Of a DNA stretch of 64,000 nucleotides, positions 2,893 through 58,500 are shown one piece after another. Origin of the DNA: Macrostomum lignano (Eukaryota); NCBI GenBank assembly GCA_002269645.1, contig NIVC01000746.1, positions 1-64,000 on the forward strand. The letters are read 5' to 3'. The notes under the pieces are model-generated. The model was given only the letters and a program-made list of their open reading frames with translations, did no database searches and was not told where the DNA came from. Position 1 is the stretch's first letter; every line of letters starts with the position of its first letter. The position numbers were made by a program, and so were the translations under genes.

Positions 2893-4790
2893 TCTTGATG
2901 AATCTGGGTATGGGGACACTGATAAACTGGGAATGGGGTCACTGATGAACTGGAATGGGGTCACTGATAAACTGGAATGGGGTCACTGATAAACTGGGAA
3001 TGGGGTCACTGATAAATTGGGAATGGGTCACTGATAAACTGGGAATGGGGTCACTGATAAATTGGGAATGGGGTCACTGATAAACTGGGAATGGGTCACT
3101 GATGAATCTGGGAATGAGGTCACTGATTAATCTGGAGGATGGGGTCACTGATGAATATGAAAATGGGGTCACTGATGAATCTGCATGGGAATGGGGTCAC
3201 TGTTGAATCTGAAGATAGGGTCACTGATAAACTGGGAATGGGGTCACTGATGAATCTGCATGGGAATGGGGTCACTGTTGAATCTGAAGATAGGTCACTG
3301 ATAAACTGGGAATGGGGTCACTGATGAATCTGCATGTGAATGGGGTCACTGATAAATCTGCATGCGAATGGGGTCACTGATGAATCTGCATGGGAATGGG
3401 GTCACTGCAGATGAATCTCGGAATGGGGACACTGAATAATCTAGGAGCTGGGGTCACTGATGAATCTACATCGGAATGGGGTTATTGCTGAATCTGGAAA
3501 TGGGTCACTGATGAATCTGGGATTGGAGTCACTGATAAACTGGAATAGGGTCACTGATAAACGGGAAATGGGGTCACTGATAAACTGGGAATGGGGTCAC
3601 TGATAAACGGGGAATCGGGTCACTGATAAATTGGGAATGGGTCACTGATAAACTGGGAATGGGGTCACTGATAAACTGGAATGGGGTCACTGATAAATTG
3701 GGAATGGGTCACTGATAAACTGGGAATGGGGTCACTGATAAATTGGGAATGGGGTCACTGATAAACTGGGAATGGGGTCACTGATGAATCTGGGAATGAG
3801 GTCACTGATTAATCTGGAGGATGGGGTCACTGATGAATATGAAAATGGGGTCACTGATGAATCTGCATGGGAATGGGGTCACTGTTGAATCTGAAGATAG
3901 GGTCACTGATAAACTGGGAATGGGGTCACTGATGAATCTGCATGGGAATGGGGTCACTGTTGAATCTGAAGATAGGGTCACTGATAAACTGGGAATGGGG
4001 TCACTGATGAATCTGCATGTGAATGGGGTCACTGATAAATCTGCATGCGAATGGGGTCACTGATGAATCTGCATGGGAATGGGGTCACTGCAGATGAATC
4101 TCGGAATGGGGACACTGAATAATCTAGGAGCTGGGGTCACTGATGAATCTACATCGGAATGGGGTTATTGCTGAATCTGGAAATGGGTCACTGATGAATC
4201 TGGGATTGGAGTCACTGATAAACTGGGAATAGGGTCACTGATAAACGGGAAATGGGGTCACTGATAAACTGGGAATGGGGTCACTGATAAACGGGGAATC
4301 GGGTCACTGATAAACTGGGAATGGGGTCACTGATAAACTGGGAATGGGGTCACTGATAAACGGGGAATCGGGTCACTGATAAACTGGGAATGGGGTCACT
4401 GAAAAACTGGGAATGGGGTCACTGATAAACTGGGAGTGGGGTCACTGATGACTCTGGAAATGGATCACTGATAAACTGGGGGATGGGGTCACTGATGAAT
4501 CTGCATGGGAATGGGGTCTGATGAATTTGGGATTGGGGTCACTTATGAATCTGGGATTGGGGTCACTGATGAATTTGGGGTTGGGGTCAATGATGAATTT
4601 GGGGTTGGGGTCACTGATGAATATGGGATTGTGGTCACTGATGAATTTGGGGGATGGGGTCACTGATGAATTTGGGGAATAGGGCCACTGATGAATCTGC
4701 GAATGGGGTCACTGATGAATTAGGGGGATGGGATCACTGATGAATTTGGGGACGAATTTGGGAATGGGGTCACTGACGAATCTGTACGTG
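2893..4790. repeat. ~21-23-bp satellite (GGGGTCACTGATAAACTGGGAAT-like) with a ~683-bp higher-order duplication
   Basis: Monomer visible throughout; a distinctive variant series starting at 3101 recurs at 3783, and one at 3408 recurs at 4091. Confidence 0.9.
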
Positions 4791-7263
4791 GATGGGATCC
4801 AGAGTTCTCTGAATGATGTGAGAATGGAGTCAGTGAGGATGGAGGTTTCTGAAGGGATGTTCAAAGGCTTCAGAAAGGCAGAAATATTGACGCACTACAA
4901 TAAATATACTAATAATCATAATCGCTTACAGGTTCTCCATAAACAGGATAAATGATTCCCATAGACTTCCCATAAATAGACACGTCTTCACCACATGTTA
5001 TCTGGCCCTGGAAGTTCCTCTTCAGTTCAGTCCGCGTGTACGAAGTCGAAATGTGTACCTTGAACGACCAGAAGCAAAATTCATAGGGGTCCTCTTTTTG
5101 AGTGCCGAAATGGTTCTAGAATAGTTCTGGAATATCGGCACTTTGCGAAAATTTGTTTAAAAAAATTCTAATATTAAACGAAAGTTTGCAAGCACGGTAA
5201 AGGGATTGATAATTCTAAAGCTTCCGTTCCAGACAACTATAATTAACAGTCCATGACTCAGCTTTATCAAGGCATAGCCGAAGAGAGAGACTTGGCTCTC
5301 TCCCAACCAGCACCAACCCCCGCCCATTTTCCTATTCCGTCCTCAGCTGACGAACCCCGCACACAGAGACCGGATGCCTCTGTACACGCCTGGCCCATGG
5401 AGCCGCAGCTGCGGTCGCTGGCTATGCTGATGCAGCCGGTACGAACGCAACCAGGACTGCTTTTGCTGTGGCAGAAATCTCTGCTGAATGGTTAGGGAGA
5501 GAACTTTTCGTCAGCGGCAAAGCACGGCATAGCGAGAGGCCCTTGGCTGGAATGGAGGTCTGTTGAATTGCTGAATTGCATATCTGGAAGTTTCTATGTA
5601 AACTGCATATCCGTACGTCTGAAGTGGCGTGACGTTGGGTGATATTGACAGAAAAAAATTGATTTGCAGATTAACAGCGAGCTAATTCTGCTCCATGACA
5701 TCAATGATAGTATTGGAAAAAATAGGCATTGGATGCTGATTGCTAGCAGCAATGGCTTCTTGATGAAGAGCCAACTAAATACGTGGCTTAGTAGCACTAC
5801 TATGCTGCAGTTTTATGCAGCTTTCAAAAGACAATGAGAAGTCAAACAAAGCCAATAGCAAGGAAGGGAAATTCTGGAGGAAGTTGGCAACAAAGCGGGT
5901 TGCACTTTTGGATGAAGCATTGTGTATCTCAAGCGCTTCAAGATTAATAAACATTGTCCTACTGACTATCAGCACTGGTTCATCCATCCACAACCGACGT
6001 GCCAGAAGACCTGTCAAATAAACTCATATTTCAGAACGCCGCAATCAACAAACTGCTGTGCAATTCAGAAAAGTTCAGTCCTGACATTTGTCAATAGGAT
6101 CCATTGACAAAGGCAAGGCGACAGTTTGCACCAACGGCTATTTTCGTACCAACGTACTTAACAGTCCCTGTAGAGAGCTGCCTGGGTGGCCCGTTACCAA
6201 TATCAACCATCAAACTCGTCTCTGTCTGCCTTCCCTTCTCTCGCTGCATTACTTTGCCTTTGATCCCTCACAAAAGGCAACTGCAAGGCATCCAAATTGA
6301 TGCATCCAGGAGGATCTGGAGCTGCACAGCAGCCTCGTGCAGTCAATAAACGCCTAACATCTGCCCTATTATTCGGCGACTGTCTCTCTATCCCCTTTTC
6401 GCTCGTCTTTGCTTCATTTCCTCGCTGGCGCTTAAAGACCAGCAGCGTCCGGCTTACATTAGAAGGGCGACATTTCTGAACTGTCTTGCATCCACATCGC
6501 TATTTCCTTTTCCTGGGAGGTCGATGATGATTCACTAAGGTACTTCTTGTACGGCTGCCGCACGGGTGAAAATAAGGTAAAGGAGCGGAGGCGGAACGGT
6601 ATGCAAGCTGGTCCAAACGTCATCCGTATTTGCCAATACGCGCGAGAGCCATTTTCGCTTCCCAAAATAGGATCCCATTTTCATTCCCATCGCTACTTTT
6701 CTTTCCAACATTCGGTAGTGAGGCTCGATTGTGCTGAACACACACGTTGGAACACAGCACTCTTCTGGGATCGGGAGGTTCGGTCAAAATTGGTAGGACT
6801 TATTGTAAAGTCGGGTTGGTCCAAGTTGCAACGGAGGCTGAGAGGCAGATGGTATGCACAGGCCATGCCAGACAGAGGGAGCTGTTCCAACCAGAACCAT
6901 TCCTAACCGCTCCAATGTACCTCGCTCGACCTATCTCCAAACCCCGAAGCTGAATTGCTTTGTACCACGACCGGGCCAGGGTGCAGGCTGCAGAACTTGT
7001 CGGAAAGAAACGATGGAAAAGGAAGGGCGAACGGTTTGCATAAATTCACCGGAAAATACTGGGTTAGTTCGAACTGCCGAAACAGCTGAGCGCCAAAGGG
7101 GAGAAGAAATCATTGCAGCCTCCGCTCTGGCGACTGTGCATGACCTTGCTGTTACAGCTGCCCTGTTGGCGTCTAGTACCTCAGTAACAGCAGGAGCACC
7201 AGCTCCAGCACTGGAAGCACTCGGAGCGGAAACTCATCAAGCAACAGACAGTCAGTTAGTCCT

Positions 7264-9300
7264 ATGACACAGGACGCAATGATCGCATCGCCTCAGTACC
7301 AGCAGCAAATGCAGCAGCAGCAACAGCAGCTTCTGCAGCATCAGCACAACCGAGCCAGGCGTAAGTGCCGCAGGTCACGATGTTACAAAGGATCAAAGAC
7401 TGAGGCCGCCATTCAGTTGACATTCAAAGACGCTGATCCTGATCCGTCATCAAATTCTGATGCCCAGGAGCAGCAGCTGATGCCTGGACGGCAAGATTCT
7501 TCCACTGGCCTGGGCCGCCACTGCCGGAAGAGTCAGCTGGATCAGCTGCGGGGCGATCTGGAAAGGCTGGGTCAGCAAATAGCTTCTCTGGCAATGCGAA
7601 ACGGCAACCGCTCCTCCGTAGTGTCTGTAGCGCCTCCACCGCCTCTAATCCCCACGGCCGAACCACCGAGAGCATCGCAGCAGCAGCAGCAGCAGCCGTC
7701 AGTAAACCGTGACCGTGGCGCAAGCGGCAAGGAGCCAAGCGTTTATGATTCGGTGGACGCGTCGGCTAACACAACAACAGCCGTTGTCGGAGCCACTGTT
7801 GAGGGACAGCACTTGAAGAAGGCTGAACTGCGTGTCGCTGGGACCGACATTACAAAAAGCATATCGGACTCTTCTGATCTTGCTTATCAGCGCCAAGAAG
7901 AGGCTGCAGCTGCTGCTTCAGGCCATGGATTATCGTCGCGACGGTACAGGCGCAAAAAGTCACTTGGTGAAGGCGATGAAGCTCCAAATACCGCCATGCT
8001 CAACAGACACGTTGGTTCGTCAAGGCGCCGAGCAAACAATGTCACCAACAACAATAGTCAGCGGGCATTTGACGGTATAGAAAATAACTCCAGTTCAAAG
8101 TCTCTGATCAGTCTTCCGCGCGGTGAAGATCAGCAGCAGCCGGGGACATCAGAGGTTACAACCGAACAGTCGACGGCGCAGAGCGTCACCAGCGGCCGCA
8201 GTCGACGCGGAGGCCTGCTTAGCAATGAAAAGTCGCCATATCGAGACGATTCGGACGGTCACCTGATCTACGCATACGGCGATGTGCTGAAGAATCGCTA
8301 CCGGATCTCAAAAACGCTCGGAGAAGGCACATTTGGCAAAGTGACAGAGTGCGCCGATATGCAGGATTTTGCTCAGCGTCGAGTAGCGGTAAAAATCATA
8401 AAAAATGTGGAAAAGTATCGCGAAGCAGCCAAGCTGGAGATCAACGTGCTGAAGAAGCTGGAGGAAAAAGACCCGTCAGGTCTGCATTTGTGCATAAAGT
8501 TGTTGAGCTGGTTTGAGTTCTATGGCCACATCTGCCTAGTCTTTGACCTTCTTGGCAAGTCTGTGTTCGACTTTCTGAAGGAGAACGACTTTGCGCCATA
8601 TCCGATAGAGCACGTGCGTCACATTGCCTATCAGCTGGTGCACTCAGTGGCCTTCATGCACGCCAACCAGCTGACGCACACGGATCTAAAGCCGGAAAAT
8701 ATTCTGCTTCTTCGGTCGACCTATTCAACCTTTGTTAATCCAAAGCGCAAGAAAGAAGAAAAAATGCTTGATCGAACGGATATCCGGCTAATCGACTTTG
8801 GTTCGGCAACCTTTGATCACGAGCACCACTCTGCCGTGGTGTCCACCCGACACTATCGAGCTCCTGAAGTCATTCTAGAGCTGGGTTGGTCGCAGCCGTG
8901 CGACGTCTGGTCCATCGGATGCATCCTGTTTGAGCTCTACACGGGCTTCACGTTATTCCAGACGCACGAGAATCGCGAACACCTGGCCATGATGGAGCGC
9001 ATACTTGGCCACGTGCCCTACCGCATGACCAGGAACTCCAGGGCCGGCTACTTCTGGCACGGCCGTTTAGACTGGGACTACCATAGCAACGAGGGTCGCT
9101 ACGTGCGCGAGAACTGCAAACCGCTGCATCGTTACATGCGAGACGAGACACCGGACACAAGAGACCTGTTCGACCTGATGCTGCGAATGCTCGAGTACGA
9201 ACCCGAGGACCGCGTCACGCTTAGCGCGGCCTTGGAGCACGCCTTCTTCAAGTCCATCCCGGCAGAGTGGAGCCTGCCGCCAGTGTCTGTGTCCAACTGA
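7264..9300 (+). CDS. CLK: CDC-like (LAMMER) dual-specificity kinase, CLK/Doa family; uninterrupted 678-aa ORF
   Basis: [29 protein letters not shown] and the family signature [11 protein letters not shown]. The frame stays open upstream to a TAG at 7174-7176 that could be a splice acceptor, so the N-terminus may extend. Confidence 0.95.
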
Positions 9301-10483: not shown

Positions 10484-13400
10484 GCTGAGCCAGCAGGGGA
10501 CAGAGGCACCAAGGGAGCAGCAACCAGAGCCACGGAACAGGTGGCCATCATTTTGAGCTATCATTCTGAGCTGCACAGGAAATTCTGCAACGCCTGTATC
10601 AAGGAGGCTGGCGTGATGAAGCAGTACACCGGGAGTCTGTTGGGACACTGCGAGACGGTGCGGAGACTTTTCAAGTTTTTTACAGAAGCTACTGCTATTA
10701 GTAGCTCAGATGTAGCTTCTGTTAAAGCTTGCTCTGGATTGCACTACAGGGATCTGTAGCCTAGTGGTCAGAGCGTCGGACTCACGACTTGAAGGTCGGG
10801 GGTTCGATTCTTGACCCACTCGAAACAATTTGTGTCATTGAGCAAGACACAACTCTGCATTGCTTCAGTTCTCCCAGATGTAAAATGGGTGCCAGCATTA
10901 GCTGGGGTAATTGAGGGTGTGTGTGGCAACCCCCAGTCCTTTGACTGAACAGCCGTACGCGCAATAGCTGCGGCTGAGCTGTCGGTTGCAAATCTGACCC
11001 TATTGGGGCAGGTGTAATCAAATATTATTATTATACTCAACTGTTGATTACATTCGTCACGCAGATCGAGTGCATAGAAGGCTTCTGGCCCAAGAACCAA
11101 GGCCTGGGCGTTCTTCTATTCGAGTGCTCCAAAGAGTGTCAAAAGTGGTTGTACAGCGACCCGGTGTTTAGGGCTAGCGACTTTCTCGAACAGGTGGAAA
11201 TGTACTGCGTGCCGCTGAGCGTTCCACTGCCTCAAGGTGAGCAATGCTACAATTAATTTAATTAGTTCGCTGGAAGCTGGCACCTTCGCTGATCCCGGAA
11301 CACGCACACAGGAGTACGATAAGACTAAAAATGGTGCACAGTGGCTCTGACATTCTATTTTCGTCGTCAGGCATGCAAAAATTACGTGCCTTAGAAGCTG
11401 GCCCTCATGGGCGCGAATCACATGACAAGTCTTACGTCATTCTCCGTGCACTAATCCAAAACGAATGTGGCCCAAAGACTTGAGAATAAAAGTAGTAGGA
11501 AAGTGGTCCCCTCTACCGCCATCGCACGGGATTGGCTGGGGCACCCGGCCAATGAGCGGAGACGGTGCCCCCCAAAGACGCCCACCCCGACCCCAAACCC
11601 ACCACCGCGACGCACCCACCCCGACCCCAAACCCACCACCGCGACGCACCCACTCCGACCCTAAACCCACCACCGCGACGCACCCACCCCGACCCCAAAC
11701 CCACCACCGCCACGCACCCACCCCGACCCCAAACCGGGCCCCCAGAGGCGCCCACCCCGACCCCAAACCCACCACCGCCACGCACCCACCCCAACCCCAA
11801 ACCCACCACCACCACGCACCCACCCCCGATCCCAAACCCACCACCGCCACGCACCCACCACGATCCCCAACCGGGCCCCCTCCTGTCCTGCAGCCCGTGC
11901 ATCCCATACGAAGGCCTCCTCCTATCCTGCACCCCATCCCATATAACAAGGTCCTTTTATCCAATACCCTATCCAAAACCAATGCCCCCTCCTAATTCCT
12001 ATAATTCCTAAACCCCAATCTTATTCCCTGCCTCACTTACCGCCTTTAAGGCTCTAGCCAAGGCAAAACCTTCATTCCATGCTTTGGCTCTACTCTTCCT
12101 TGCTGTGGCGCGTACAGCGTGAGGTCGTTAGACCTAGACCGCTACTTCTTGGTGGCCAGAGGGCCGCAAGAAGGTCCCGCCACCTCCTGTTGTGTGGGGT
12201 TGGATTCGGGGTTCGGATTGGTTATTGCTATGGAGCTGGTTTCTAAATGGCTGAGTGGTCCCCGGAAGGGCTTCTGATTTGCCGAGAGTTCCCGCGAAAG
12301 GGCTGTTGTGTGAGGTTGAATTAGGGGTTCGGATTGGTTATTGCTATGGAGCGGGAGCTGGTGTTGCTCACCAACTCCCGTCGTATATAATCTCGCGCAC
12401 AGCTGGAAGGAAAGCTCAAAGTTTTTGACAGTGAACAAAATGGACTTCAAGACATTATCGAACAGATTTCGAATCGGCGTCAGGTCGCACTCGAAATGCA
12501 TCAGCATCAGAAAGTGGTACAAACTTGGCGAAGAGTATCGACCAGGTCTACCTGGCATGGAGCTCACCGTCCATCAGTTTTGCCACTTGGGCAGCCTGAA
12601 GGAACGACTGGAAGAGTCTGCAAGAAAGTGTATCGATGCGCAATGCCTTCTGGGCGGCAACAGGCAAGTGGTTGTGCAAAATGGCGTAATCACACTCTGG
12701 CGCCTTCCAACTGTACTCGGACCGCCGGGCGCCTAAGGCACGCCTTACCGCTTCCTACTACACTTTGGCGCGAAGTCTGGGCTCAAAAGCAATGGGTCCT
12801 TGACAAAATTGACAAGTGAGAGTCTCCGGTCGAGCCACCGATCGGCGATCCATAGTGGATGGGATACCACCCTACGGAGCCTGAAGAGTGTGAAGCATGG
12901 GCAGCAAGGCTTGCACTCGACCAACTGATGCAAGTACCTGACAGGCAGCCGGCAGAGTGGGAAGACCACTGGGAGGCCTTCCAAGCAGTTCAGGCTGAAT
13001 TTAGAAAGAGATTTACAGCCAACAGCCTTCATGCCACCAGCCACCAATGAAGCGACGCGCAATGCATGAAGCGACAACTGGTCATTTCGTCAATTAACTT
13101 TTTTAATACAGTTTTGAATCATAATACTGATCATGCACTTGTATATATTGCTTTGTCATTACTGACCATAATATTGCCAATAAAAGAAACATAAAAAATG
13201 TTTCATTTTCGTAAGCATTGTTGCACAAACACAATATAGTCGCATTCGCGTTTATTTTTTCTTATCTTTTGTACACAAAAAATACAGAAGTAAAGTTACA
13301 ACAAAAATATTATTATTTTTAATCGGTGCATAGGCAGATCTCACTACTACTGTTATGCTGTAGAGGAGCTCAGATCGAGTCCAGCAAAGTAGGTTCGGAT

Positions 13401-16400
13401 GCTTGGTCTGCATGCAAAATGCGGGTGAGAGCATCAGCTGCAGTCTGAGCCTCAACCACGCTGCGAGCACCGGCTATTATTCAACGATATGAATGAAGCA
13501 AAATCAACTTTACAGAAGCAGTAAACTCGAGCACAAGTCCGTTAAACATTTCCGGCTCATAGGTACCCCGATGCGGCCATTTAGACTTGACTTCCCCCAA
13601 CCGGAGTGGATGCCGACTCGCGGGAAAGGCCGTCACAGAGGTACCAGTATGTAATAGTCTTGATGCGAATCTGGGGCAGACTGGTCAATCGCAAGAAGTC
13701 CGCACACAGCCTCACAATCTTCTCCGTCTCTGCGAGAGCCTCCTCCAGGCTTTTGGCTCCACAGACAGACACTTGTCCGATAGGATACACCAGCGCGGTT
13801 ACTCGATGCTGCCTGCTCTTCATCACCACTGCCAGTGTTCGAGGATGAACCAGGCGATGGCGGATTGTGTGATGCTGAGGCAGATGAAGAGTCATGAAAT
13901 TCGCTAGTTGTGGCAGACCCACCCGGGTCGCCAGATCGGCTCCTGTCACGATGTTTGTCACGCGAATTGTTGCGACCATCTTTAGACAATCGAGAGAAAC
14001 GCCAGTGCCTGCTGCAGATCGTTACTTTTATAGACCCGTAGCCGCGAGGCCGCAGCCAATCAGCGTACAGCGTCACCTTGTCCAGGGCGCAGGGTAGCAC
14101 GTACTTTGAGGCACTCGGAAAGGCCAGGTGTGCTAGGTCGTAGACAGGCTGTAGCAGCAGACGCGATAGGAACTGGCACTTGACGTCCCCTTTGCTGAAT
14201 ATCGGGCCTTGCAAGTGAGAGATATCGCTCCAGAGACAAGAGTAGGGTCGGAACCCACTCCTGTCCCAGTCTAGACCGTGCCGCTTATTGGTGAGCCAGT
14301 AGCAGGTTCGTCGCTGTCCTCTATCAAAGAGCTCAAAACTGTGCGGCGGCCGGTAGCAATAGTAATGAGCCGTCGTTTGACCGCATGCAAACTCAACCCA
14401 TGCAATTTCCTTAATCACAAAGTCTTCTGTTTTGTAGAGGTGCGGAAATCCTTCAAAATCAATGACAATCATCTTGGCCACTTGATCCACTTGCCGTATC
14501 CTTTCTGAGACTGAGTCTTCTTATAGTCTTGCAGTCGAGGTTTTTTAGGACTGGACTTTTCTTCCCGAGGCTTTTCCAGCAATTTTGTAGTGTTCAGACC
14601 AACTGCAGACAGGTACGTGGTTTTCTTGAAGACACGTAACAAACTCATTAATCCCATTCGGGGGCTGAAGGTACTTAGAGTACGTATCTTTAACTATGAA
14701 ATGCAGCAGGTCCACGATATTTGAGTTGTACAACGGTTTACCATTGACAGAAACTTCATATATATAATCTATGCTAATCGACTTGCACTTTACGGTTATG
14801 AAGGTAATCAATGCCTGCAGACGATGATGCCATTTCTGATTCACCGTCAGATATAACATCTCCTTCCACTGCAGTTCTTTGTGAATTACTGGAGACTGTT
14901 CTTGGGTCGCACTTGCCTGCAGCTGCTGCACACAACGCTCGTCTCTAATCTTGCGCAACTGTTTTTCCGCCTCTAGCTCGGGTTCACAGACTGTCTCCAT
15001 GCCCCTCTGATTCACAAGTGCCTCATACTGCAACCGGGGCACCATTATCATTTTCTTGTACATGTCTTTTTATACAAGTGAGAATCAGAGGAAGACAACG
15101 AAGGATATGCGCGTGTGAGAGATTGCGCCGAGCCTCTTTCACACTTTTGCTTTGTGCAACAAGCCGGAGAGTATTTCGATATCGCCTGCGTCTCCGCTTC
15201 AAGCTATCTTCACAACCAACTTTTCCTGCTAGTAAGTTGATAATACACTCGACAAAAAAGCAAATGGTGCTTTTATTTGCATAGGTAAGTATGCAGCGAC
15301 GCAAGGATATAGTGCCTTCACAAAAGACAGTTATTAGTGCAAAGTGTTTATCCATGTTTAACTCAGTGCAGAGACTGGGCGATTCTTACAGATAAACTCG
15401 CTGCGGGGCCTCATCGGGGAGAAAATTGGCTCTCAGGCGCAGTTCATGGGGTGAAGCGGGGTGAAAATCAAGCAGCAGATAGCGCTGATCTCCATCTCGC
15501 ACCAATCGATCCATCAGTTCTACTAGCAGAGTGAGCCGTTTGGGAAAGCATTGCTGACTTAAAGCTTGGACCGCAGAGGTGTCTCTGGGGTTGTTGAAAA
15601 ACAGCATGTAGGTGCAATTTATGCTAATTGTGCGCCACTCTCTGCCTTTGAAAAATAGATTTGGCGTGATGAGAATGACAAAGCAGGGCTTGTGGTGGGC
15701 CTCACGGGTGAACAGGTGTCGTAGCTCTCGACTTGCAGCTGCTTCATCCAGTAAATCATCAATCACAATCAGGTCATGGGGCTGCAGATCCAAATTCGAT
15801 AATCCTTCACATACTTGCACTCCTAGCCGCCGCAGAGTCGCGTGGAGTTCCGGCTGCGGGCATCCGTGATACCAAATCATCCGCTTGGGAGGTTGGTCGA
15901 ACAGAAGCAGTCGTTGGGACAGCAGCCGCAAACAGAATGTTGATTTTCCCGCTCGAGAAGGGCCCGAAACCATCATGCAGCTGCCTATCCGCAGTCTGGA
16001 ATCAAACACCTTGCAACTGATTTTTGAGTCTGAGTATGATTGCATCGTTTTGAGCCACAGCTGCCGGATGCAAGGCCTTGATGAACAAGGCATTATAAGA
16101 CATTCTCTTATGTAGTCGATGGATCAAGTAAAAAATGCAATACCAGCCGCAAAGAGTTGACGAACTGGGCTGAACAGGGACCGTATTCCATTGTAGCACC
16201 ATCCGCGTTGGTTTAGTTTTCTTTAACCAGCTCTTCATATTTTTACTCAAGCCTCTCAAAGACTTGAAAATTTCACAATGCACTTTACTGGTTGCTACTC
16301 CAGCAATCCAGTGACCGCACTCATCATTCCATGGCTCATACAAAATGAAGCAGCAGTGCATTGCTGGAGTACGTAACAAGTCATTGTAGCGGCCAGCTGG

Positions 16401-19400
16401 AATTTCAGCACATTGCATTGAACCCTCAAGCTGATAATATAGCGACAATGGATGAGAGATCGTGTAGATGCAGTTGATAAAAACTGATTCCAAGCAGAGC
16501 CAACTCATAATCCAAAGCAGAATCCAGCAGCACAGGATGAAGCAGCTCAGCAGTAAAGTTGGCCGGGTCATCATCGGGGCCGGACATTACCTGAAATCTT
16601 TGCCTTTTCATATTTTTGTTAAGTTTTTTACGTCAATCCAACTGGGTTTTTCTGAGTCGCGCCACTGAACCAAATACCGAATCTTTCCACTATTCAGCTT
16701 CTCAATGTTGAGAACCTTGTCAATGGTCCACAGCTTCTTGTTTCCAATCACTTGCTGCATTTCCGGCTCGTAAAACTTGCCTTGGGGTGGAGGGACTCGA
16801 TTTCAAATACTTCCTCACTCCATCCCCTTGTGTATCCCTTGGTGAATGGGTTGGTCGGATTGCGAAGAGAGATTCGCACCATCATTCCTGCCTTGAACTT
16901 TGGTCTGGAGACCTTTTCACGAGTCTCAGGAAGCTTCCCATCATAGAGCCGGTGCCAAATTTTCATCTCGTTTGACTTGTTGACATCAACTGGTCGGCTT
17001 TGAATACTCCGATAAATACTCTGGTTGTATGCCTTTACTAGGGGCTTAAGCACATCGGTCCAGGTTAATGTTGACTTGTGACGAAAGTACCGCCACATTC
17101 GGGATTTCAGTGTGTGGTTCCATCTCTCAATGACTGCGCATTTCTGGTCACTGCTTGACGTGAATGCATGCATTTTCTGGTTTACGCAGAGGGCTCGGAA
17201 CTGGATGTTACAAAACTCTTTTCCGCGGTCGGTCCGAACTGCTCGTGGGCATCGAGGGTGAGCTCGATTTAGGATCGCTTCGAATCCGGCTGCAACTTCC
17301 TCGGCTGTCTTGCGGCGCACCGGCTGAGCCCAGGCAAATTTGCTGAGCACATCGATGCAACATAGAATATATCGTACGCCGCCACTGTACTTGGCAAACG
17401 GCAGCATTTCAACCAGGTCCAGTTCCCACTGGTCATCCATGCCCCGCACCACAATCGGTGCTCGACGAAAGTTTTTGCGTTTATCTCTATGCAGTGTGTA
17501 GACATCTTGGTCTCGGAGCCACGTCTGTATCTTTAATTGAAAGTAATGTTAAAACTGGAAATTGCTAGCATTAAAATACATGCATTTCAATGGGAATTTT
17601 TACCCAAGTGTGTGCACGAAAAACCTCGACACTTTGCATACTATTTAACACTGTGCACGAAAACTTACATACTCGTGCACAAAGTACATGCATTTCAATG
17701 GGGATTTTAACCCAGACCTGTGCACAAAAATGACTCATTATGGTAAAAATATTAATGTGAAAGAACATTTTTCTCTCCTGCAGTGTACCAGATATCATTG
17801 AGTAAAGCTAAGCATGTATTTATTATTATTCAAAATATAGTATGTTCGTATTAAATTTACATGCATATAGTTGTTTAAAATCAGATATTTGCAAAGAAAA
17901 ATTTTATGGTGAGAAAACGAGCTTGCTAGTGTCCAGACAGATCGCACTGGCCGATATACACTAGCCTGTCGAGCACAACATTCGTCTTGAGAATGTGCAC
18001 TAGAACTAAATCCCCGTTGAAAATCATCTGCTCGCGGAACGCTGGCTTGGCCACAGGCTTTCCTGCTGAATTAACCAGCCGGTAGTCCACTTGCTTGCGA
18101 ACATTCTCCAGGGTCTTTCCAAACAGGGGGTTGTTTAGCAGCTTGTTGCAGTCTTTCTTGAACTCATTCTTAGCCTTTTGCACGATGCTCCATGCGGTAG
18201 ATAATAAACAGCGGTCGACACGTCAACACACCGAGTGGTCCTGATTATCCAGCCACTGCCATTGCGTAGGTACTTCTCTATCCGGTTGAGGATAGTCTGC
18301 ATGTCGTCAGAGAAGTAGTGCTCCTACTCACTCCGAATAAGAGAGTGGATCTTGGCAGCAAACCAGGCGGTGTTCTCGGCGGCGCAGCTTCCATTAATGA
18401 TGCGCTGCATCAGGACCCCGAGGCGCAGCTGAACCTTGATGGCGGTTCCTGGCTCACGTTGATGCTGGGTGATCAAGTCAATGAAAGCTTGACGAGAGTT
18501 TTCCAAAACGTTCCTCGCGTCGCCGCATGCACTGGCCCGGTAAAGTCGGGACCTGCCATCAAACGCCTCCTTGATCAGTTGAAAATGAATCGTTTGGGGA
18601 GTCATCTGACTTAAATAGTGCTGGTATCGCAGGACATACCGCATAGTGCTCCTCAATGCCCCCGATTACTGATGACTCGCAAAAGTCGCAAGTTATTTGC
18701 ATTTTTGTTGTATGTTCAATTTAATCTAAAATAAAAAAATCTACACTGAGTCCCGGGTGCTTCGCTTATAAAGGGTCCTGAACCCCAGCTCCTGCGGGGC
18801 GTGTTGACCAACCAAATCGTGCATCAGGGACCTCTCGACCAATAGAACCCCTTCTCCACATTACTCGGCAATTCCGAGGAAATCACTTCTAAATGCTTGC
18901 TCGACCAATAGAATCTCTTTCCCTCTCTACTAGGAAATTCCAAGCAATCGGACCCTCTACCCGTTGACCGATCACACTGAAACTCTGTCTTGCGTGTCAC
19001 CACCAATGGACACTCATTCACAACTCGATACCCACTCTTGGACACTCACTTAACTCACCCTTGGACACTCACCCAGACACTCAGCTGCCCAACCCCTCCT
19101 CTGGCCTGCTCGACCGGCCTGCCCGACCCCCACCTTTGGCCTGCTCGACCCCATCCTTGACCTGCTCGACCCCATCATTGACCTGCTCGACCCCATCCCT
19201 GGGCCTGCCCCACCCCTACCTCCGGCCTGTCCCGCCCGCCTCCGGGGCCTCCTCATCGCTGATTGACTCCCCCTCGCTGATTGGCCAGCCATTCATTGGT
19301 ATGGATGCACGGGGTGCAGGACAGGAGGGGGGCTTGGTTTGGGATGGGGTGCAGGACAGGAGGGGCCCGGTTTGGGGTCGGGGGTGGGTGCGTGGCGGTG

Positions 19401-19848
19401 GTGGGTTTGGGGTCGGGTGGGGGTCTTTGGGGGGCCGTCTCCCCGTATTGGCCGGGTGGCCGGCCAATCCCGTGCGATGGCGGTAGAGGGGACCACTTTC
19501 CTACTACTAATAAAGATTGCAACTAGACTCATTCAACGTCCATACCGGTAGACTACCCAAGAGTTTCAATACCACACTATTCGAAGAGTCTCCTAAATTT
19601 AACGCATGAATTGATATAACTTCCAGGTTACGCAGTCTTGTCCATCATGAACTTGGACGTGCAGTTCAAAGAGATCTTCAACGGCGAATATCTTAAGCGA
19701 CACGAGGATGGCGTGCGCAGCTGCCAGGGGATTCCATGCGTTGCCATCACCGACAAGGTGCAGAAGGTGAAAGGGATGCGAAATCCCAAGTACTTCATTG
19801 TTGACGCGTGGAAATGCCGTCAAGACTTCGACGCCTGGTACAAGGCAG
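10484..19848 (+). CDS. Spliced host gene with two DUF1330-like repeats; exons 10484-10657, 11065-11236, 19627-19848 (possible upstream exon ending 10051; 3' end unresolved)
   Basis: AG/GT boundaries are phase-compatible (0, then 1). The joined translation gives KQYTGSLLGHCETIECIEGFWPKNQGLGVLLFECSKECQKWLYSD and a second unit GYAVLSI...DKVQKVKG..PKYFIVDAW....FDAWY, resembling the DUF1330 pattern (kyGGrfl..vevlEG.wp..vvvieF.s...A.aWy.S). Family call by eye. Confidence 0.65.
10749..11035 (+). mobile_element. tRNA-derived CORE-like SINE, family 1 copy A
   Basis: A box TAGCCTAGTGG (10757), B box GGTTCGATTC (10801), central segment GTGTCATTGAGCAAGACAC...CTTCAGTT...TGTAAAATGGG resembling the MIR CORE, (ATT)n tail; similar copies at 30786 and 38840. 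Confidence 0.8.
11491..11940 (+). repeat. Left terminal inverted repeat, with about 9 copies of a 34-bp GC-rich unit
   Basis: 11491-11536 is the exact reverse complement of 19463-19508; unit CCCCGACCCCAAACCCACCACCGCGACGCACCCA is tandem over ~11580-11875. Confidence 0.9.
12208..12395 (+). promoter_or_regulatory. Putative Pol II promoter of the PC4-like gene
   Basis: Direct repeat GGGGTTCGGATTGGTTATTGCTATGGAGC (~12208 and ~12323), each with an inverted CCAAT; TATATAA at ~12385, about 55 bp upstream of the ATG at 12440. Confidence 0.5.
12440..12819 (+). CDS. PC4/Sub1-like ssDNA-binding protein, probably two tandem PC4 domains with a frameshift near 12700-12735
   Basis: ISIRKWY..GEEYRPGLPGMELTVHQFCHL aligns with PC4 [28 protein letters not shown]. 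A second unit LGGNRQVVV..GVITLWR continues in another frame as ALPLPTTLWREV....VLDKID (stop 12819). Confidence 0.7.
12859..13050 (+). CDS. Small Polinton ORF of unknown function (63 aa, Trp-rich and acidic)
   Basis: ATG ORF directly after the PC4-like gene, followed by an AATAAA near 13179 in the AT-rich convergent terminator zone. Confidence 0.35.
   Translation: MGYHPTEPEECEAWAARLALDQLMQVPDRQPAEWEDHWEAFQAVQAEFRKRFTANSLHATSHQ
13370..13979 (-). pseudogene. TATA-binding-protein-like gene (both TBP repeats), disrupted by one frameshift (~13645-13660) and an in-frame TGA (13481-13483)
   Basis: Repeat 1: NIVTGADL...AVVMKSRQHRVTALVYPIGQVSVCGAKSLEE (TBP NIVSTVNL...[30 protein letters not shown]). 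Repeat 2, read by hand in the +1 frame: PLRLGEV...TYEPEMFNGLVL...LILLHSYR*IIAGARSVVEA...LTRIL (TBP PIRLEGL...SYEPELFPGLIY...LLIFVSGKVVLTGAKVRAE...IYPIL). Confidence 0.85.
13633..14490 (-). CDS. DEDD/DnaQ-like (Maelstrom-like) nuclease-fold protein; conserved part is about the first 145 aa
   Basis: IVIDFEGF, VIKEIA, YRPP.SF, RTCYWLT..HGLDW..G..PY, IFSKG..K.QFL, VYDL, CALDKV..YADWL match a motif series I recognise from Polinton-type ORFs. The remainder is low-complexity read-through over the TBP gene. Confidence 0.6.
   Translation of the reverse strand: MDQVAKMIVIDFEGFPHLYKTEDFVIKEIAWVEFACGQTTAHYYCYRPPHSFELFDRGQRRTCYWLTNKRHGLDWDRSGFRPYSCLWSDISHLQGPIFSKGDVKCQFLSRLLLQPVYDLAHLAFPSASKYVLPCALDKVTLYADWLRPRGYGSIKVTICSRHWRFSRLSKDGRNNSRDKHRDRSRSGDPGGSATTSEFHDSSSASASHNPPSPGSSSNTGSGDEEQAASSNRAGVSYRTSVCLWSQKPGGGSRRDGEDCEAVCGLLAIDQSAPDSHQDYYILVPL
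14025..14066 (-). promoter_or_regulatory. Putative TATA + CCAAT promoter of the TBP-like gene
   Basis: Minus-strand TATAAAAG at 14032-14025, about 46 bp upstream of ATG 13979; a CCAAT box at ~14058-14062 lies within the ADWL codons of the upstream ORF. Confidence 0.6.
14545..15063 (-). CDS. Conserved Polinton hypothetical protein
   Basis: EVSVNGKPLYNSNIVDLLHFIV...PPNGINEFVTCLQENHVP matches the recurrent Polinton motif G(S)NIVDL...P.G..EF...L...NVP. Confidence 0.65.
   Translation of the reverse strand: MYKKMIMVPRLQYEALVNQRGMETVCEPELEAEKQLRKIRDERCVQQLQASATQEQSPVIHKELQWKEMLYLTVNQKWHHRLQALITFITVKCKSISIDYIYEVSVNGKPLYNSNIVDLLHFIVKDTYSKYLQPPNGINEFVTCLQENHVPVCSWSEHYKIAGKASGRKVQS
15023..15355 (-). 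CDS. Small basic Polinton/adintovirus protein next to the ATPase (cupiennin-like)
   Basis: RRCILTYANKSTICFFVECIINLLAGKV...KRRRRRYRNTLRLVA resembles the conserved R.AIL..A...LI..I.EC..N.L.G.V...K..L...K..LR.LA pattern; located directly downstream of the ATPase. Confidence 0.6.
   Translation of the reverse strand: MDKHFALITVFCEGTISLRRCILTYANKSTICFFVECIINLLAGKVGCEDSLKRRRRRYRNTLRLVAQSKSVKEARRNLSHAHILRCLPLILTCIKRHVQENDNGAPVAV
15386..16093 (-). CDS. A32/FtsK-like genome-packaging ATPase (likely start MQSY at 16045)
   Basis: Walker A GPSRAGKST, Walker B LIVIDDL, FTREAHH, RTISINCTY..FNNPRD and YLLLDF.P, all typical of Polinton ATPases; ORF intact. Confidence 0.92.
   Translation of the reverse strand: MPCSSRPCIRQLWLKTMQSYSDSKISCKVFDSRLRIGSCMMVSGPSRAGKSTFCLRLLSQRLLLFDQPPKRMIWYHGCPQPELHATLRRLGVQVCEGLSNLDLQPHDLIVIDDLLDEAAASRELRHLFTREAHHKPCFVILITPNLFFKGREWRTISINCTYMLFFNNPRDTSAVQALSQQCFPKRLTLLVELMDRLVRDGDQRYLLLDFHPASPHELRLRANFLPDEAPQRVYL
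16002..16475 (-). pseudogene. Adenain-like capsid maturation cysteine protease, N-terminus fused to the penton remnant
   Basis: GHW, EIFKS (usually EYFDS) and QPSSSTLCGWYCIFYL motifs; no native start survives because homology begins at the deletion junction. Confidence 0.8.
16476..16611 (-). pseudogene. N-terminal ~45 aa of the minor capsid (penton) protein
   Basis: ANFTAELLHPVLLDSALDYELALLGISFY matches the Polinton penton start (ANFT..L..P..L...YEVAL..I.Y); its ATG overlaps the integrase stop (ATGA, 16608-16611). Confidence 0.7.
16608..17535 (-). pseudogene. Retroviral-like (c-)integrase with C-terminal chromodomain; 5'-truncated, with a frameshifting deletion near 16785
   Basis: WLRDQDVYTLHR, DDE triad in WELDL / TDRGKEF / VIERWN, KGYTRGWSEE. 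After the shift another frame reads GKFYEPEMQQV...WTIDKVL...RYLVQWRD...SWID to the stop at 16608. Confidence 0.92.
17940..18656 (-). pseudogene. Protein-primed family B DNA polymerase (pPolB), heavily deleted
   Basis: N-terminal region reads through a TAG (18324-18326) into ILNRIEKYLRNGSGW...YYLPHGAS, then jumps directly to the motif B region KNEFKKDCNKLLNNPLFGKTLENVRK...KT.V.LD..VYIG. Exonuclease, motif A and motif C are absent. Confidence 0.85.
19290..19508 (-). repeat. Right terminal inverted repeat
   Basis: Reverse complement matches the left end exactly for 46 bp and imperfectly beyond that, with only 1-2 copies of the 34-bp unit. Confidence 0.9.
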
Positions 19849-28488: not shown

Positions 28489-31400
28489 ATGGAATCAGTT
28501 GGCGAGTTCGAATACTCCACAAGAGAGCTGATTGGTCACGGCGCCTTCGCCCTGGTTTACAAAGGCCGGCACAGGGTGTCGCAGCATCGCAAAGTGGCCA
28601 TCAAAGTTATTCAGAAAAAGAATCTGGCCAAATCGCAGAATCTATTGAGCAAGGAGATAAAAATTCTGAAAGAGCTGAGCACTCTCAAGCACGATAATGT
28701 GGTTGGCCTGTTGGATTGTATTGAAACTGGGGATCGGGTGTTTCTGGTCATGGAATACTGCAATGGCGGCGACCTGGCTGGCTATCTGATGGACAAGAAG
28801 ACATTGTCTGAGGACACCATCCGGCATTTTCTGCGCCAGATCGCCAGGGCTATGCAAGCTCTGGCCAGTAGGCAGGTGGTGCACCGCGACATGAAGCCGC
28901 ATAACTTCTTATTGAACTGGCCAGAGCCAATCTGGACCAGCTTGGAGAACGCTATCAGTCCCAGGGAGAAGTACCCACCGGCGCATCAGATCTCCATTAA
29001 AATAGCCGATTTCGGCTTTGCCAGGTTAGCAGTGGCTTGGAGGGATTAATTAGTAATGTCATCTTACTTCTGACACATCAGAATCTTGATCTGACACATC
29101 AGAATCTTGAATCTGGCACATCAGAATCTTGGATCTGACACATCAGAATCTTTGATCTGACACATCAGAATCTTGTATCTGACACATCAGCATCTTGAAT
29201 CTGACACATCAGAATCTTGTATCTGACACATCAGAATCTTGGATCTGACACATCAGAATCTTGGATCTGACACAGAATCTTGGATCTGACACATCAAAAT
29301 CTTAGATCTGATACATCAGAATCTTTTGTCTGACACATCAGAATCTTTGATCTGACACATCAGAATCTTTTGTCTGACACATCAGAATCTTGAATCTGGC
29401 ACATCAGAATCTTTGATCTGACACATCAGAATCTTGGATTTGACACATCAGAATCTTTGATCTGACACATCAGAATCTTGGATCAGACACATCAGAATCT
29501 TGGATCAGACACATCAGAATCTTGGATCTGACACATCAGAATCTTGGATCTGACACAGAATCTTTTGTCTGACACATCAGAATCTTGTATCTGACACTCA
29601 GATTCCCATACTACGTCGCAACCCAAATCCCCGCAGGTTCCTAGCAGACGGCAAGATGGCGGGCACCCTATGCGGCAGTCCGATGTACATGGCGCCAGAG
29701 GTGCTGATGTCCTGGAACTACGACAGCAAAGCGGACCTGTGGTCCATCGGCACCATTGTGTACCAGTGCCTCACTGGCACCGCGCCATTTCATGCTAACA
29801 CGCCGCAGGCGTTGAAAGATTTCTACGAACGGAACGTCAACCTGCGACCGCGGGTGCCGCCGAACACCTCGCCGGAGCTGACCGACCTGCTGCTGCGGAT
29901 CCTGCGCCGCAATCCGGCAGACCGGATCAGCTTCGAGGACTTCTACCAGCATCAGTTCCTGTCCCTGGCACCCGCCTCTGCTGTACCCATGCCGCTGCAG
30001 CGGAAAGCGTCTCAGGGCGATAATCTCAAGCTGCTGTCGGCGTCGCCGCTGTCTGAGGCTTCGCCACCTTTGCTTCAACAGCAGCAGCAGCTCCAGCAAC
30101 AGCATCGGCGACCGCTGCCGCCAACTCCGACTGCTTCAAGTCAGCGCCAGCAGCCGCGGAAGCAGCAACAGCAGCAGCCGGCACCGGCCGGGGCTCCCGC
30201 CGCCGAGCCTGGCCACGACTTCGTGCTGATTGGCCAGGACGGGGCCGAGGAGCCGCCAGTTGCCGGTGCCGCCGCCGCCGCCCGCCTGTTCCAAGCCGCT
30301 TCCGGTAGCGGTAGCATTGAACGGTCGAGAAATCTGCTTCGGCCGTCGCCTTCGCCTTCGCCTCCGCCCCCTACTGGCTCGACGGCGACGGCGCCTGCTG
30401 GAACAGCGCCTGCTTCTGCGGCTGCTGCTGGAACTGTGGCCAGGGCGGTGCCAACCTCGCCTGGTGACAGGGGCAGCAGTAAAGACCTGGTCGCTGGCGG
30501 ATTCGATTTGGCTAAGATGTCGCCTCCGCAGGTTTGTGTCTTTGCTATGCTACTTTTATAGTAATTGCATGAGTTTGCTAGAGGATTTTACGTCTAGGAT
30601 TTTGCTAGACGACTGTTGAGTCACGAGGGCATCACGTGACTTGTAAAAGAAATGCAAATGCAAAAAAAAGCCGTCCGAGAGTCTTTGTGTCAGCGCTTAA
30701 CTGTCTACTAACTCAAGTAGACTCAAATGCGAAATGCGAGATTTCATTGCATATCACGTCTCATATCTGCTACAAAGCACAACATGATAGCCCTGTGATT
30801 GGAGCGTCGGACTCACGACTTGAAGGTCGGGGTTCGATTTCCGATCCCACTGGGACAATCTGTGTCCTTGAGCAAGACACTTAACTCTGTGTTGCTTCAG
30901 TTCACCCAGCTGTAAAATGGGTGCCAGCATTAGCTGGGGTAATTGAGGATGTGTGGCGACCCCCCAGTACTTGGACTGAACAGCCGTACGCAGCCTTCAG
31001 ATGCGCCGCGCAAATAGCTGCGGCTGAGCTGTCAGTTGCACATTTGGCCCGATTGGGACAGGTGTAATTAAAAAAAACACTAGCCCTACTCTCTACGCAC
31101 TACTCAATCATGAGTAGTTCATTCCGCACATTCACCGAGTTGCCCTGCCGCCATCTGCCCGGTCTCGCCCAGGTCCAGTTCAGCTTGGAACGTCGCCGAC
31201 GACGTCGCGGAGATTCCGGCGGCAGCGGCTCGCCGGCGTCGCTGGCTGGCCTCGCTGATGTCGGCGGATTCGGCGAGGCCTCGCCGCCGCCCAGCTCGCT
31301 GGTGCCGTTCTACATGGCCGCTGCTGCCGCCGCCTCCGCGCCTGGCAACCTGGACGCCTCGGGCGCCGCTGCTGGCGACGCCGACGCCGATGACTACGAC

Positions 31401-32290
31401 GACGATTTGGACGGCGAGGCGGCGCCGGAGCTGTCAGAGGAGACTCTGATGAGCGCAGAGCACATGCAAACGGTTGAGAAGCTGCGCTTTGTGCTCACCT
31501 TTGTTGATTACCTCACCGAGCTGGCGCAGAGCCGGTCAGCTCCGCTGACTGCGGCCAGCTCAGCGCTCGGCCTGCCCAGCGAACTGCAGCGTCATGTTGA
31601 GCAGCTGCTGCTGTACTCAAGGATTCAGCATTTCCTTAGCAACGCTGTCAGGCTGGCCAGAGACCAGCTCAGCCGCTCCGTGCTGCGCCCAACTGCCGCC
31701 GTGAAAGAGCTGCTGACTATTATGAACCGGCACTATCACCAGTGCCACATTCGGTGAGAGATACTACTTATGCTAATGTCTATTAAGTAGTTTGGAGGCG
31801 TTGTAGCCTAAGAGGTTTCCGACTCACTCGGACACAAGTCTATTTATTTAAGAACAGATTTTCACTAAACTTTCATACTACTTAGAACTAGCTCTAAACA
31901 GTAGTACGGAAGCAAATTAGCCCTTGCTATATGCGCCACCGCCTGACCCGATCCAGATGCAAGCAGCTGCAGCGCCACACCACGTCGGTGCCAGACGCCC
32001 AACTGCAGAAGCAGCTGTCGAGCGACCTGTCAGCCGAGAAGCTGATCTATCAGTACGCGGTGGACATGTTTGAGTCCGCCACCTTGGAGGAGGCATTCGG
32101 CGAGCTGGAGCGCTGCTTCCGTCAGTACAAGACGGCCAGGGTGCTGCTGCACGGCCTGGCCGAGATCGCCTCGTCGCAGCGGGATCACCGAATTCTCACA
32201 GAGGCCACTCAGCTGGTTGAGAAGCGCCTGCGAGGGCTGGAGAGCCGCGGCCTTGTGCAGTCCAAGCAGATTGGCGGCGGCTCCCCGTGA
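28489..32290 (+). CDS. ULK1: Serine/threonine kinase ULK1/Atg1 (unc-51); exons 28489-29024, 29637-30531, 31173-31753, 31957-32290 (~781 aa)
   Basis: [27 protein letters not shown]|[17 protein letters not shown]; C-terminal MIT-type region [18 protein letters not shown]. All four exons join in phase at GT-AG sites. Confidence 0.93.
29068..29600. repeat. ~22-bp minisatellite (TCTGACACATCAGAATCTTGGA)n filling ULK1 intron 1
   Basis: About 24 copies visible. Confidence 0.95.
30786..31078 (+). mobile_element. CORE-like SINE family 1 copy B
   Basis: Similar to 10749-11035 over its length (GAGCGTCGGACTCACGACTTGAAGGTCGGGGTTCGAT; GTGTCCTTGAGCAAGACACTTAAC...TGTAAAATGGG). Confidence 0.8.
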
Positions 32291-58129: not shown

Positions 58130-58500
58130 GGGCGCCTATCAAAAGACAGGGGCGTCCACCAAGAGACAGGGGCGCCCATCAAGAGACAGGGGCGCCTAAC
58201 AAAAGACAGGGGCGCCAACCAAGAGACAGGGGCGCCCACCAAAAGACAGGGGCGCCCATCAAGAGACAGGGGTGCCCACCAAGAGACAGGGGCACCCACT
58301 AAGAGTTAGGGGCGCCCACCTAGGAGACAGTTGTGCCCACCAAGAGACAGGGGCGCCCATCAAGAGACAGGGGCGCCCATCAAGAGACAGGGGCGCCCAC
58401 CAAAAGACAGGGGTGCCCACCAAGAGACAGGGGCGCCCATCAAGAGACAGGGGCGCTCACTAAGAGACAGGGGCGCCCATCGAGAGACAGGGGCGCCCAC
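58130..58500. repeat. 20-bp minisatellite (CAAGAGACAGGGGCGCCCAY)n
   Basis: About 18 copies. Confidence 0.92.

Follow-up and report, generated by a model that had tools for sequence, protein, structure and literature searches.

Why would a virus-like mobile element carry a TATA-binding protein (TBP) of its own? The question is raised by a TBP-like gene on the minus strand (13370..13979) of the 64,000-nucleotide stretch of the Macrostomum lignano genome analyzed here (the window), and it bears on how Polintons switch on their capsid genes.

A TBP-fold gene inside a Polinton copy

The gene starts at 13979 and its stop codon lies at 13372-13370. Its first ORF (132 aa) matches Pfam TBP above the curated cut-off (E 9.9e-9), while a second frame (13639-13484) carries the YEPEMF motif and matches TBP weakly (Pfam, E 0.044). 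A preliminary description had recovered the second repeat by reading past a +1 frameshift; the frame break, near 13650-13640, does lead into the second frame, but a single frameshift is not enough for a complete protein in this copy, since an additional in-frame stop (13483-13481) precedes the AGAR motif. The parent gene was nevertheless a complete two-repeat TBP of about 200 aa, as had been supposed, for uninterrupted copies exist, e.g. L003 (199 aa), matching Pfam TBP in two stretches (E 5.7e-18, 65 bits), or L040 with 79.8 bits to PF00352, also in two stretches, where the cut-off is 22.9 bits. The TBP-like genes form two families, A and B, about 36% identical, and the window gene shares 93-95% DNA identity with uninterrupted family-A copies. 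Copies of the L003 type match 35 distinct PDB TBP chains by sequence (best E 7e-10), the predicted fold of the uninterrupted protein is confident (pLDDT 85.6), Foldseek aligns it with TBP structures (E about 1e-12, TM about 0.7) and TBP entries fill the ranking of PDB structures from the top to rank 44 (TMq 0.64-0.72). All these lines agree and confirm 13979-13370 as a two-repeat TBP-fold gene inside a Polinton copy.

The host element is an internally deleted Polinton/Maverick copy of 8,018 bp (11491..19508, minus strand), defined by termini, target duplication and sister copies. Two hallmarks of a Polinton are present, inverted repeats whose ends begin with AGT repeats and a target duplication of 6 bp: the termini read AGTAGTAG at 11491 and 19508, and AATAAA is duplicated on either side (11485..11490 and 19509..19514, plus strand). 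The left terminal repeat, which contains an expanded 34-bp tandem array, spans 11491..11935 (plus strand) and the right one 19296..19508 (minus strand), with approximate inner ends. Both protein-primed PolB and integrase, by which Polintons/Mavericks are recognized, are represented; the retroviral-type integrase lies at 16751..17548 (minus strand; Pfam rve, E 2e-11), while PolB is reduced here to remnants (17938..18644, minus strand; C-terminal motif 18174-17938, N-terminal piece 18644-18324 identified by eye against L034) and occurs as long ORFs in sister copies and family-B copies. A P-loop ATPase, of packaging type by context (15386..16093, minus strand; AAA families, below the Pfam cut-off), is recognized by Pfam as generic P-loop only, in this and other copies, and is preceded by a near-box, TAAGAG, at 16110. 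The cysteine protease remnant (16005..16356, minus strand), whose family-B counterpart matches Peptidase_C5 (E 7e-5), adjoins the deletion that took the capsid genes. The copy has lost the penton and major capsid genes as well as the greater part of PolB; a capsid candidate absent here is found in L034, 40% identical to the family-B candidate, itself a putative double-jelly-roll capsid on the strength of an Atlas lead (24% of the top cluster has a DJR-like domain).

Further along the module are a small conserved ORF of 110 aa (15023..15355), a conserved ORF without assigned function that is shortened in this copy (14545..15063; TATAAAAA at 15074) and, upstream of the TBP-like gene, an ORF with an N-terminal DxE motif (13633..14472), the C-terminal part of which shares its DNA with TBP repeat 1 but is read in a different frame, all on the minus strand. 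The DxE ORF, which may resemble DEDD nucleases, has no Pfam match, its profile gave no meaningful PDB match and its predicted fold has a pLDDT of 32. A PC4-like gene (12440..12736, plus strand), shortened here (231 aa in L017) and matching Pfam PC4 below the cut-off (E 6e-4), converges on the TBP-like gene. Sister copies bounded by these termini range from 4.3 to 16.7 kb. The window copy is a dead, deleted derivative, and the Polinton context assigned to it earlier is upheld by the termini, the AATAAA duplication, the integrase, the P-loop ATPase ORF and PC4. Contigs of four sequencing runs guessed to be RNA cover 30, 30, 30 and 13 of 30 bins of the stretch and are silent on expression.

Copies, age and selection

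A search for intact copies in the genome returned uninterrupted genes in 38 of the 45 copies fetched. The protein is a TBP core only (187-199 aa), carried by mobile elements in at least 150 genomic matches; of 26 terminal-repeat pairs, 23 have a family-A match between them. Both families share the module order capsid-protease-ATPase-small ORF-ORF-DxE ORF-TBP. Median dN/dS in family B is 0.15 for repeat 1 (36 pairs of 9 copies) and 0.16 for repeat 2 (36 pairs, of which 21 are unsaturated). The element proteins are 24-28% identical to host TBP, compared with 81% for a plant TBP. In a 32-row tree, from which 28 of 60 rows were left out, long branches and near-duplicates among them, the element TBPs form one clade separate from host TBP (support 100/99). 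TRF2 does not group with them there, the deep branching order being unsettled and the AU test covering host TBP only.

A passenger without function, i.e. a recently captured retrocopy of host TBP or TRF2, is therefore very improbable and largely refuted. The broken window copy, the weaker constraint in family A (pN/pS about 0.34-0.41, 9 copies) and an AU test that rejects a grouping with host TBP only marginally (p=0.04) would suit such a passenger, but the low host identity, a dN/dS of about 0.15, a position conserved in two families and the relatives in public sequence sets, 60-64% identical, all oppose it. A recent retrocopy, which the preliminary description had named as a possible refutation, was rejected on the grounds of dN/dS, the separate clade and low host-TBP identity. 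With a dN/dS near 0.15 and so little identity to host TBP, the element TBP is, judging from these comparisons, an old gene under selection. A chance ORF as its origin was likewise rejected.

The closest outside relatives (P0001, P0002, P0004, P0005 and P0040) are sequence records with longest contigs of 0.9-2.7 kb. P0169 as query had no match in the M. lignano genome, and scans of viral contigs with the alignment and with P0169 found nothing. A metagenome scan gave 14 loci at 20-26% identity, eight of which, read by their ORFs, are cellular or giant-virus-like and none Polinton, and an Atlas search returned generic TBP clusters only. Among five short stretches of other PolB families two were outside Polinton context and three lacked TBP in the part read.

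A changed DNA face and a variant box

Residues are given in what we take to be yeast TBP numbering, with the roles presumed for them there. Both families retain the equivalents of N69, V71, T112, L114, E186, E188, F190 and F207, share changes in the saddle centre (F116Y, K120Q, V122S/T, T124C, N159T, V161T) and have in common a Lys four residues before F207. The canonical pattern of four intercalating Phe and paired Asn is thus kept at F190, F207 and N69 and altered at F116 and N159; the F99 equivalent is T, L or W in an uncertain alignment register, hence lost or shifted. The earlier tally of one Phe in four is true of the decayed window copy alone. Uninterrupted copies keep two Phe and a Tyr, with F190 and F207 invariant (15/15 and 15/15), and read (T, L or W)/Y/F/F where host TRF2 reads Y/R/H/F, so that three of four Phe are not lost as in TRF2. 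The suggested TRF2/TBPL1-type loss of DNA binding, which also sits badly with purifying selection, is not supported, in view of the two retained Phe, the Tyr at a third position, the TFIIB stirrup and the shared new DNA-face residues. The acidic C-terminal stirrup is the best-conserved motif (E188 invariant, E186 nearly so, at sequence level), and E186/E188 are presumably the TFIIB contact. A predicted complex with 144 aa of host TFIIB, taken from a single exon and run without controls, scored 0.00, which speaks neither for nor against contact.

A canonical TATAAAAG box (14025..14032, minus strand) precedes the start of the TBP-like gene by 53 nt, and of 14 uninterrupted family-A copies 13 retain it; upstream of it is a putatively functional CCAAT box (14056..14060, plus strand), inverted relative to the gene. 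PC4 has a canonical TATATAA box 56 nt upstream (12384..12390, plus strand), in a promoter stretch that also precedes the PolB gene in L034. While family-A TBP and PC4 have canonical TATA, many module genes of both families are preceded by TAAGAA, in the window about 33 nt upstream of the 110-aa ORF (15383..15388, minus strand) and, there within TATAAGAA, about 50 nt upstream of the DxE ORF (14518..14523, minus strand).

TAAGAA, a motif chosen by eye from the same sequences as tested, is the top hexamer, found upstream of 9 of the 16 genes in L034 and L040 (permutation P=0.001, best of any hexamer), and over five related modules it occurs 36 times in sense and once in antisense orientation. Against a protein-preserving null, which took 4/8 family-A genes and 7/8 for L039 (an unbroken upstream frame was required and TBP-A omitted), it preceded 5/8, 4/7 and 3/4 genes versus means of 1.0, 1.0 and 0.7 (P<=0.0014); the family-B modules are related, therefore these are about two independent samples. 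Its total in coding DNA is modestly above codon shuffle (P 0.28, 0.036, 0.03), the no-TBP control comprises three partial stretches only, its distance to the start varies between 10 and 147 nt, a broad spread for a TATA box, and the protease and one module ORF have none within 120 nt. Since the boxes lie in differing reading frames and that of TBP-B stands 63-78 nt before a start lying mid-ORF, TAAGAA tracks starts and not gene ends. At the homologous spot of the TBP promoter the families differ, with TATAAAAG in A and TTAAGAAG in B (23/24 copies). The 110 nt before the family-B gene contain no canonical TATA, and the exchange between families marks TAAGAA as a TATA-type box. In family A the near-canonical TATAAGAA occurs in several places and may be read by host TBP.

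A possible late-gene factor and its known counterparts

These observations suggest that the element turns on its late genes with its own transcription factor. We give a probability of roughly 0.5 to a Polinton late-gene TBP which, by analogy, would act like the TATT-binding proteins of herpesviruses. Host TBP would first transcribe the early genes that have a canonical TATA promoter (PolB, PC4 and, with CCAAT and TATAAAAG, family-A TBP); the element TBP, its saddle re-tuned, would then bind (T/A)TAAGAA, the variant box in front of virion-module genes, and recruit host TFIIB via the conserved acidic stirrup, and host Pol II would thereby be brought to capsid and packaging genes. Family-B TBP itself is behind the variant box, therefore leaky host transcription or feedback would be required. 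More tentatively, we propose a branch of animal Polintons with its own early-to-late cascade, in which a minimal TBP of re-tuned specificity reads a family-specific TATA variant at capsid and packaging genes and joins host TFIIB-Pol II. Of the roles suggested earlier, redirecting Pol II suits the promoter boxes better than a decoy does, and PC4 is indeed present in family A, but its part as partner is unsupported: it lies on the opposite strand and was not recognized in six 10-kb family-B stretches, read non-exhaustively from ORF lists.

The variable spacing of TAAGAA, the repeated use of near-canonical TATAAGAA in family A and the position of TBP-B behind a TAAGAA box would also agree with another reader of the box (host TBP or TRF2), or with its being an initiator or an RNA-processing signal, the element TBP having another job such as DNA bending at the terminal repeats or Pol I/III-type complexes. 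The late TAAG of baculoviruses is a comparable signal. The promoter exchange between families and the conservation of the TFIIB stirrup argue against this reading, which we consider rather unlikely. Still less probable is a decoy or host-shutoff factor, a TBP mimic without productive DNA binding that ties up TFIIB or TBP regulators: E186/E188 are kept while N159, V161, T124, K120, R196 and TFIIA-side N91/E93 are changed, and family A has lost part of the basic helix-2 patch, but DNA-face positions fixed in new states across such distant families fit changed specificity better, two Phe and a Tyr are retained, and the decoy leaves TAAGAA unexplained.

A self-encoded TBP with a matching box, as a late-gene factor would have, offers a concrete, testable control point for capsid genes in a laboratory flatworm and supports the view of Polintons as real viruses with a timed programme; Maverick particles have not been observed, according to the part of PMC8097293 available to us. 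If the proposed cascade is true, it would be the missing switch explaining when Polintons make particles, and a genome of ~15 kb would hold a naturally orthogonal pair of TBP and promoter that arose independently of those in herpesviruses and giant viruses; a natural TBP of putatively altered specificity would be useful for the study of TATA recognition. The gene was earlier put forward as a candidate for an undescribed system, and 'undescribed' is nearly right for print: the one Polinton TBP we found there is a 'TBP' label in a figure legend of Starrett et al. 2021 (PMC8502044), in a section on non-animal datasets, with the carrier element unspecified and, in the portion available, without analysis, family or promoter box.

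Polintons/adintoviruses and MELD viruses (PMC8502044, as far as available) likewise have PolB, integrase, an adenovirus-type protease and inverted repeats, and probably share the ATPase and capsid module. With cellular TBP (PF00352; eukaryotic and archaeal) the element protein shares the two-repeat saddle fold, N69, V71, L114, F190, F207 and the EPE stirrup, and differs from it in being a core only, in its low identity, in the substitutions listed above, in the lost or shifted F99 and in the TFIIA-side residues. TRF2/TBPL1 (host copy L022) is likewise a divergent TBP paralogue in which the DNA face is changed and E186/E188 persist, but it keeps the F207 equivalent only, whereas element proteins keep F190, F207 and Tyr116. 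TBPs of giant viruses and mirusviruses, seen as viral TBP-fold matches in BFVD (best E 4e-12) and reported sporadically in mirusvirus-like elements (PMC10675990, in the part available), are 7-18% identical and belong to large genomes that bring a transcription machinery of their own. Beta/gamma-herpesviruses encode TBP-like late factors (EBV BcRF1, KSHV ORF24, HCMV UL87) that go with TATT boxes on structural-gene promoters (PMC4893493, in the part available), and a virus-encoded TBP-like protein with a non-canonical TATA-like box on structural genes is, by analogy and from the enrichment of TAAGAA as a putative promoter, common to both. The herpesvirus factors are about 10% identical to TBP and work in a six-protein complex, whereas the element protein is a small, recognizable TBP core with an intact TFIIB stirrup, set among Polinton genes in an element of 10-17 kb and paired with a different box.

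A TBP-like gene in a decayed Polinton

Repeat 1 of the TBP-like gene is encoded on the minus strand from 13979 (Pfam TBP, E 9.9e-9), while repeat 2 lies in a different frame from about 13639, the gene ending at 13370. The preliminary description held that a single frameshift restores the full two-repeat protein; the change of frame was confirmed, but an in-frame stop at 13483-13481 also interrupts repeat 2. The Polinton context it proposed is well supported: the element (11491-19508; 8,018 bp) has AGTAGTAG termini, is flanked by a 6-bp target duplication, AATAAA, and contains an integrase, an ATPase, a protease remnant, a PC4-like gene and PolB remnants. Compared with a longer sister stretch (L034) it lacks the penton-capsid block as well as the greater part of PolB; it is a derivative that has decayed and is non-autonomous. 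Over the part that matches, identity to a UniRef record labelled Macrostomum lignano is 97%. The gene model UniRef100_A0A1I8HX20 joins element pieces, including the TBP-like gene, with an ABC transporter and looks like an annotation chimera. On either side of the element are putative host kinase genes, labelled by their motifs, a CLK/LAMMER-like intronless ORF (7264-9300) and a ULK1/Atg1-like gene (28489-32290). Numerous minisatellite arrays (units of 18-49 bp) are found at 2900-4800, 33975-34560, 38900-47500 and 58000-63000.

Copies, recombination and ancestry of the gene

The genome holds at least 151 TBP-like matches, a lower bound since 150 of 220 candidates were scored. Among the matches listed, about three dozen belong to family A, that of the window copy (62-100%), and about 110 to family B (35-46%). 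That a complete parent gene of about 200 aa existed is borne out by the fetched copies, filtered for unbroken ORFs of 185-216 aa: 14 of 19 in family A and 24 of 26 in family B are uninterrupted. A TBP-like match is enclosed by 23 of 26 family-A terminal-repeat pairs; one pair (G000 C862:327172-340125) encloses two. The virion-gene module has the same order in both families: capsid candidate, protease, ATPase, small ORF, ORF, an ORF with an N-terminal DxE motif and, last, the TBP-like gene. PolB ORFs in the family-B stretches are long (Pfam, E 7e-14), and a protease of adenovirus type (E 7e-5) is encoded there as well. Host TBP and host TRF2 are separate genes with three genomic matches each, and no TBP was found in the 5.5-7 kb read of at least two further Polinton-like families of this genome (L081, L082, L085), of which one is AT-rich and another has an ORF labelled by eye as dUTPase-like.

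The upstream ORF is open in another frame across the whole of repeat 1 in both families (13633-13979 in the window; L035-L040, L055-L073). No stops are present in this frame at 10-17 sites where a synonymous change would create one (P 0.017 in family A, P <=0.002 in five family-B copies), and repeat 2 has 5-8 such stops, which suggests, from sequence, a dual-coding overlap under selection. In some copies (L025-L028; G000 C1330, C2038, C5126) the DxE ORF is joined in frame to the TBP-like gene, giving 295-369-aa ORFs or 370-379-aa open frames; these fusions are probably frameshift decay and possibly tolerated. Family-B copies (L035, L036, L038, L039, L040, L060, L062) are approximately 95-100% identical before the repeat junction and 46-86% beyond it, with dS of about 0.06 versus >1, and downstream they carry differing PolB modules in either orientation. 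We therefore read the junction as a recurrent recombination point in family B.

The predicted structure of an uninterrupted 199-aa copy (L003; pLDDT 85.6) resembles experimentally solved TBP structures, with E about 1e-12. The element proteins are 24-28% identical to host TBP, compared with 81% for a plant TBP, and host TRF2 reaches 41%. In a 32-row tree both families group with four outside relatives in a single clade (100/99) and host TBP is placed with plant-like TBPs (96/93); rejection of a tree forced to join element proteins with host TBP was marginal (AU p=0.04). In nine family-B copies the median dN/dS of repeat 1 is 0.15 and that of repeat 2 is 0.16, the latter leaving out 15 of 36 pairs as saturated, and family A has pN/pS of 0.34-0.41. 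A recent host retrocopy unique to the window copy, the alternative raised in the preliminary description, was rejected on the identity to host TBP, the dN/dS of about 0.15 and the clade; the gene is instead old and under selection. A distinct clade (100/100 for four sampled rows) consists of divergent TBPs of compact size from short contigs of metagenomes (P0038, P0154-P0158, P0160-P0162); they have Tyr116 and an FHSG motif in common and are perhaps TBPs of other mobile elements.

Residues were mapped via host TBP and are given in yeast numbering, in which N91/E93 belong to the TFIIA side. Element proteins retain N69, V71, T112, L114, E186, E188, F190 and F207. Both families share F116Y, K120Q (H in the outside relative P0040), V122S/T, T124C, N159T, V161T/S, P191N/S/T and T215A/S/C, and N91/E93 are altered. 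The F99 equivalent is, depending on register, T/L in family A and W/P in family B. A Lys four residues before F207 is near-invariant in both families, as taken from the family alignment, the aligner having misplaced a gap nearby in the host-TBP mapping. The proposed TRF2/TBPL1-like loss did not hold: host TRF2 has Y/R/H/F at the four Phe sites, unlike the element proteins, which keep F190 and F207, and the analogy is thus traced to decay in the window copy.

Putative promoter boxes and the possible role of the element TBP

TAAGAA, mostly as TTAAGAA or ATAAGAA, lies upstream of penton, capsid, ATPase, small ORF, DxE ORF and the family-B TBP-like gene. It is the top hexamer at -120..-10 (9/16 genes of L034 and the family-B stretch L040), and random starts gave an equally high best hexamer in 2 of 2000 trials. 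When codons were resampled with proteins fixed, omitting one gene of L039 and four of L034 (the TBP-like gene among the latter), TAAGAA was present in 5/8, 4/7 and 3/4 windows versus means of 1.0, 1.0 and 0.7. Over all coding DNA its count exceeds expectation just slightly (P 0.28, 0.036 and 0.03), therefore the signal is the position of the box. Strand bias is absent in host flanks (23 vs 20) and in the AT-rich Polinton family (7 vs 6, 8 vs 9), and four family-B PolB genes have just 1-2 sense copies each. The family-A TBP-like gene is preceded by CCAAT and TATAAAAG (13/14 copies), with TTAAGAAG at the homologous site in family B (23/24). Family-A PC4 and PolB have a TATATAA promoter stretch in common, that of PC4 (12299-12426) being 91% identical to the pre-PolB stretch of the sister copy (L034:4-131); the two ends of these elements may use a single promoter.

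The most likely reading of these sequence patterns, at a probability of about 0.5, is an early-to-late switch, in which host TBP would drive early genes and the element's TBP would read TAAGAA upstream of the virion module and bring TFIIB-Pol II to it. Against this switch stand the protease and one module ORF, which have no box, the spacing of 10-147 nt between box and start, and the variant box before the family-B TBP-like gene. Another factor could read TAAGAA while the element TBP has a different job, which we consider unlikely, and a decoy function is more doubtful still. That the gene is a mere passenger is very improbable; it is real, selected and mechanistically suggestive.

Relation to known systems

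No TBP family or late box in animal Polintons was found in the full-text literature outside subscription journals and Repbase. The novelty suggested earlier is nevertheless qualified, because 'TBP' already stands in a figure legend on MELD elements (Starrett et al. 2021, PMC8502044, section 3.4, and preprint 10.1101/697771); the searched text of one supplement of that paper gave 0 matches, and its figure and slide supplements may bear on priority. By term search, TBP and TATA are absent from the main texts of PMC10748475, PMC8097293, PMC11161782, 10.1101/2022.07.12.499685 and 10.64898/2026.06.19.733378, the last of which mentions VLTF3 in polinton-like viruses, and nothing relevant stood in PMC12220804. 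TBP-like factors are described in herpesviruses (PMC4893493) and a TBP in mirusviruses (PMC10675990). By analogy, the element TBP with its box would be a variant, apparently uncharacterised in Polintons, of the known theme of a viral TBP plus a variant TATA box.
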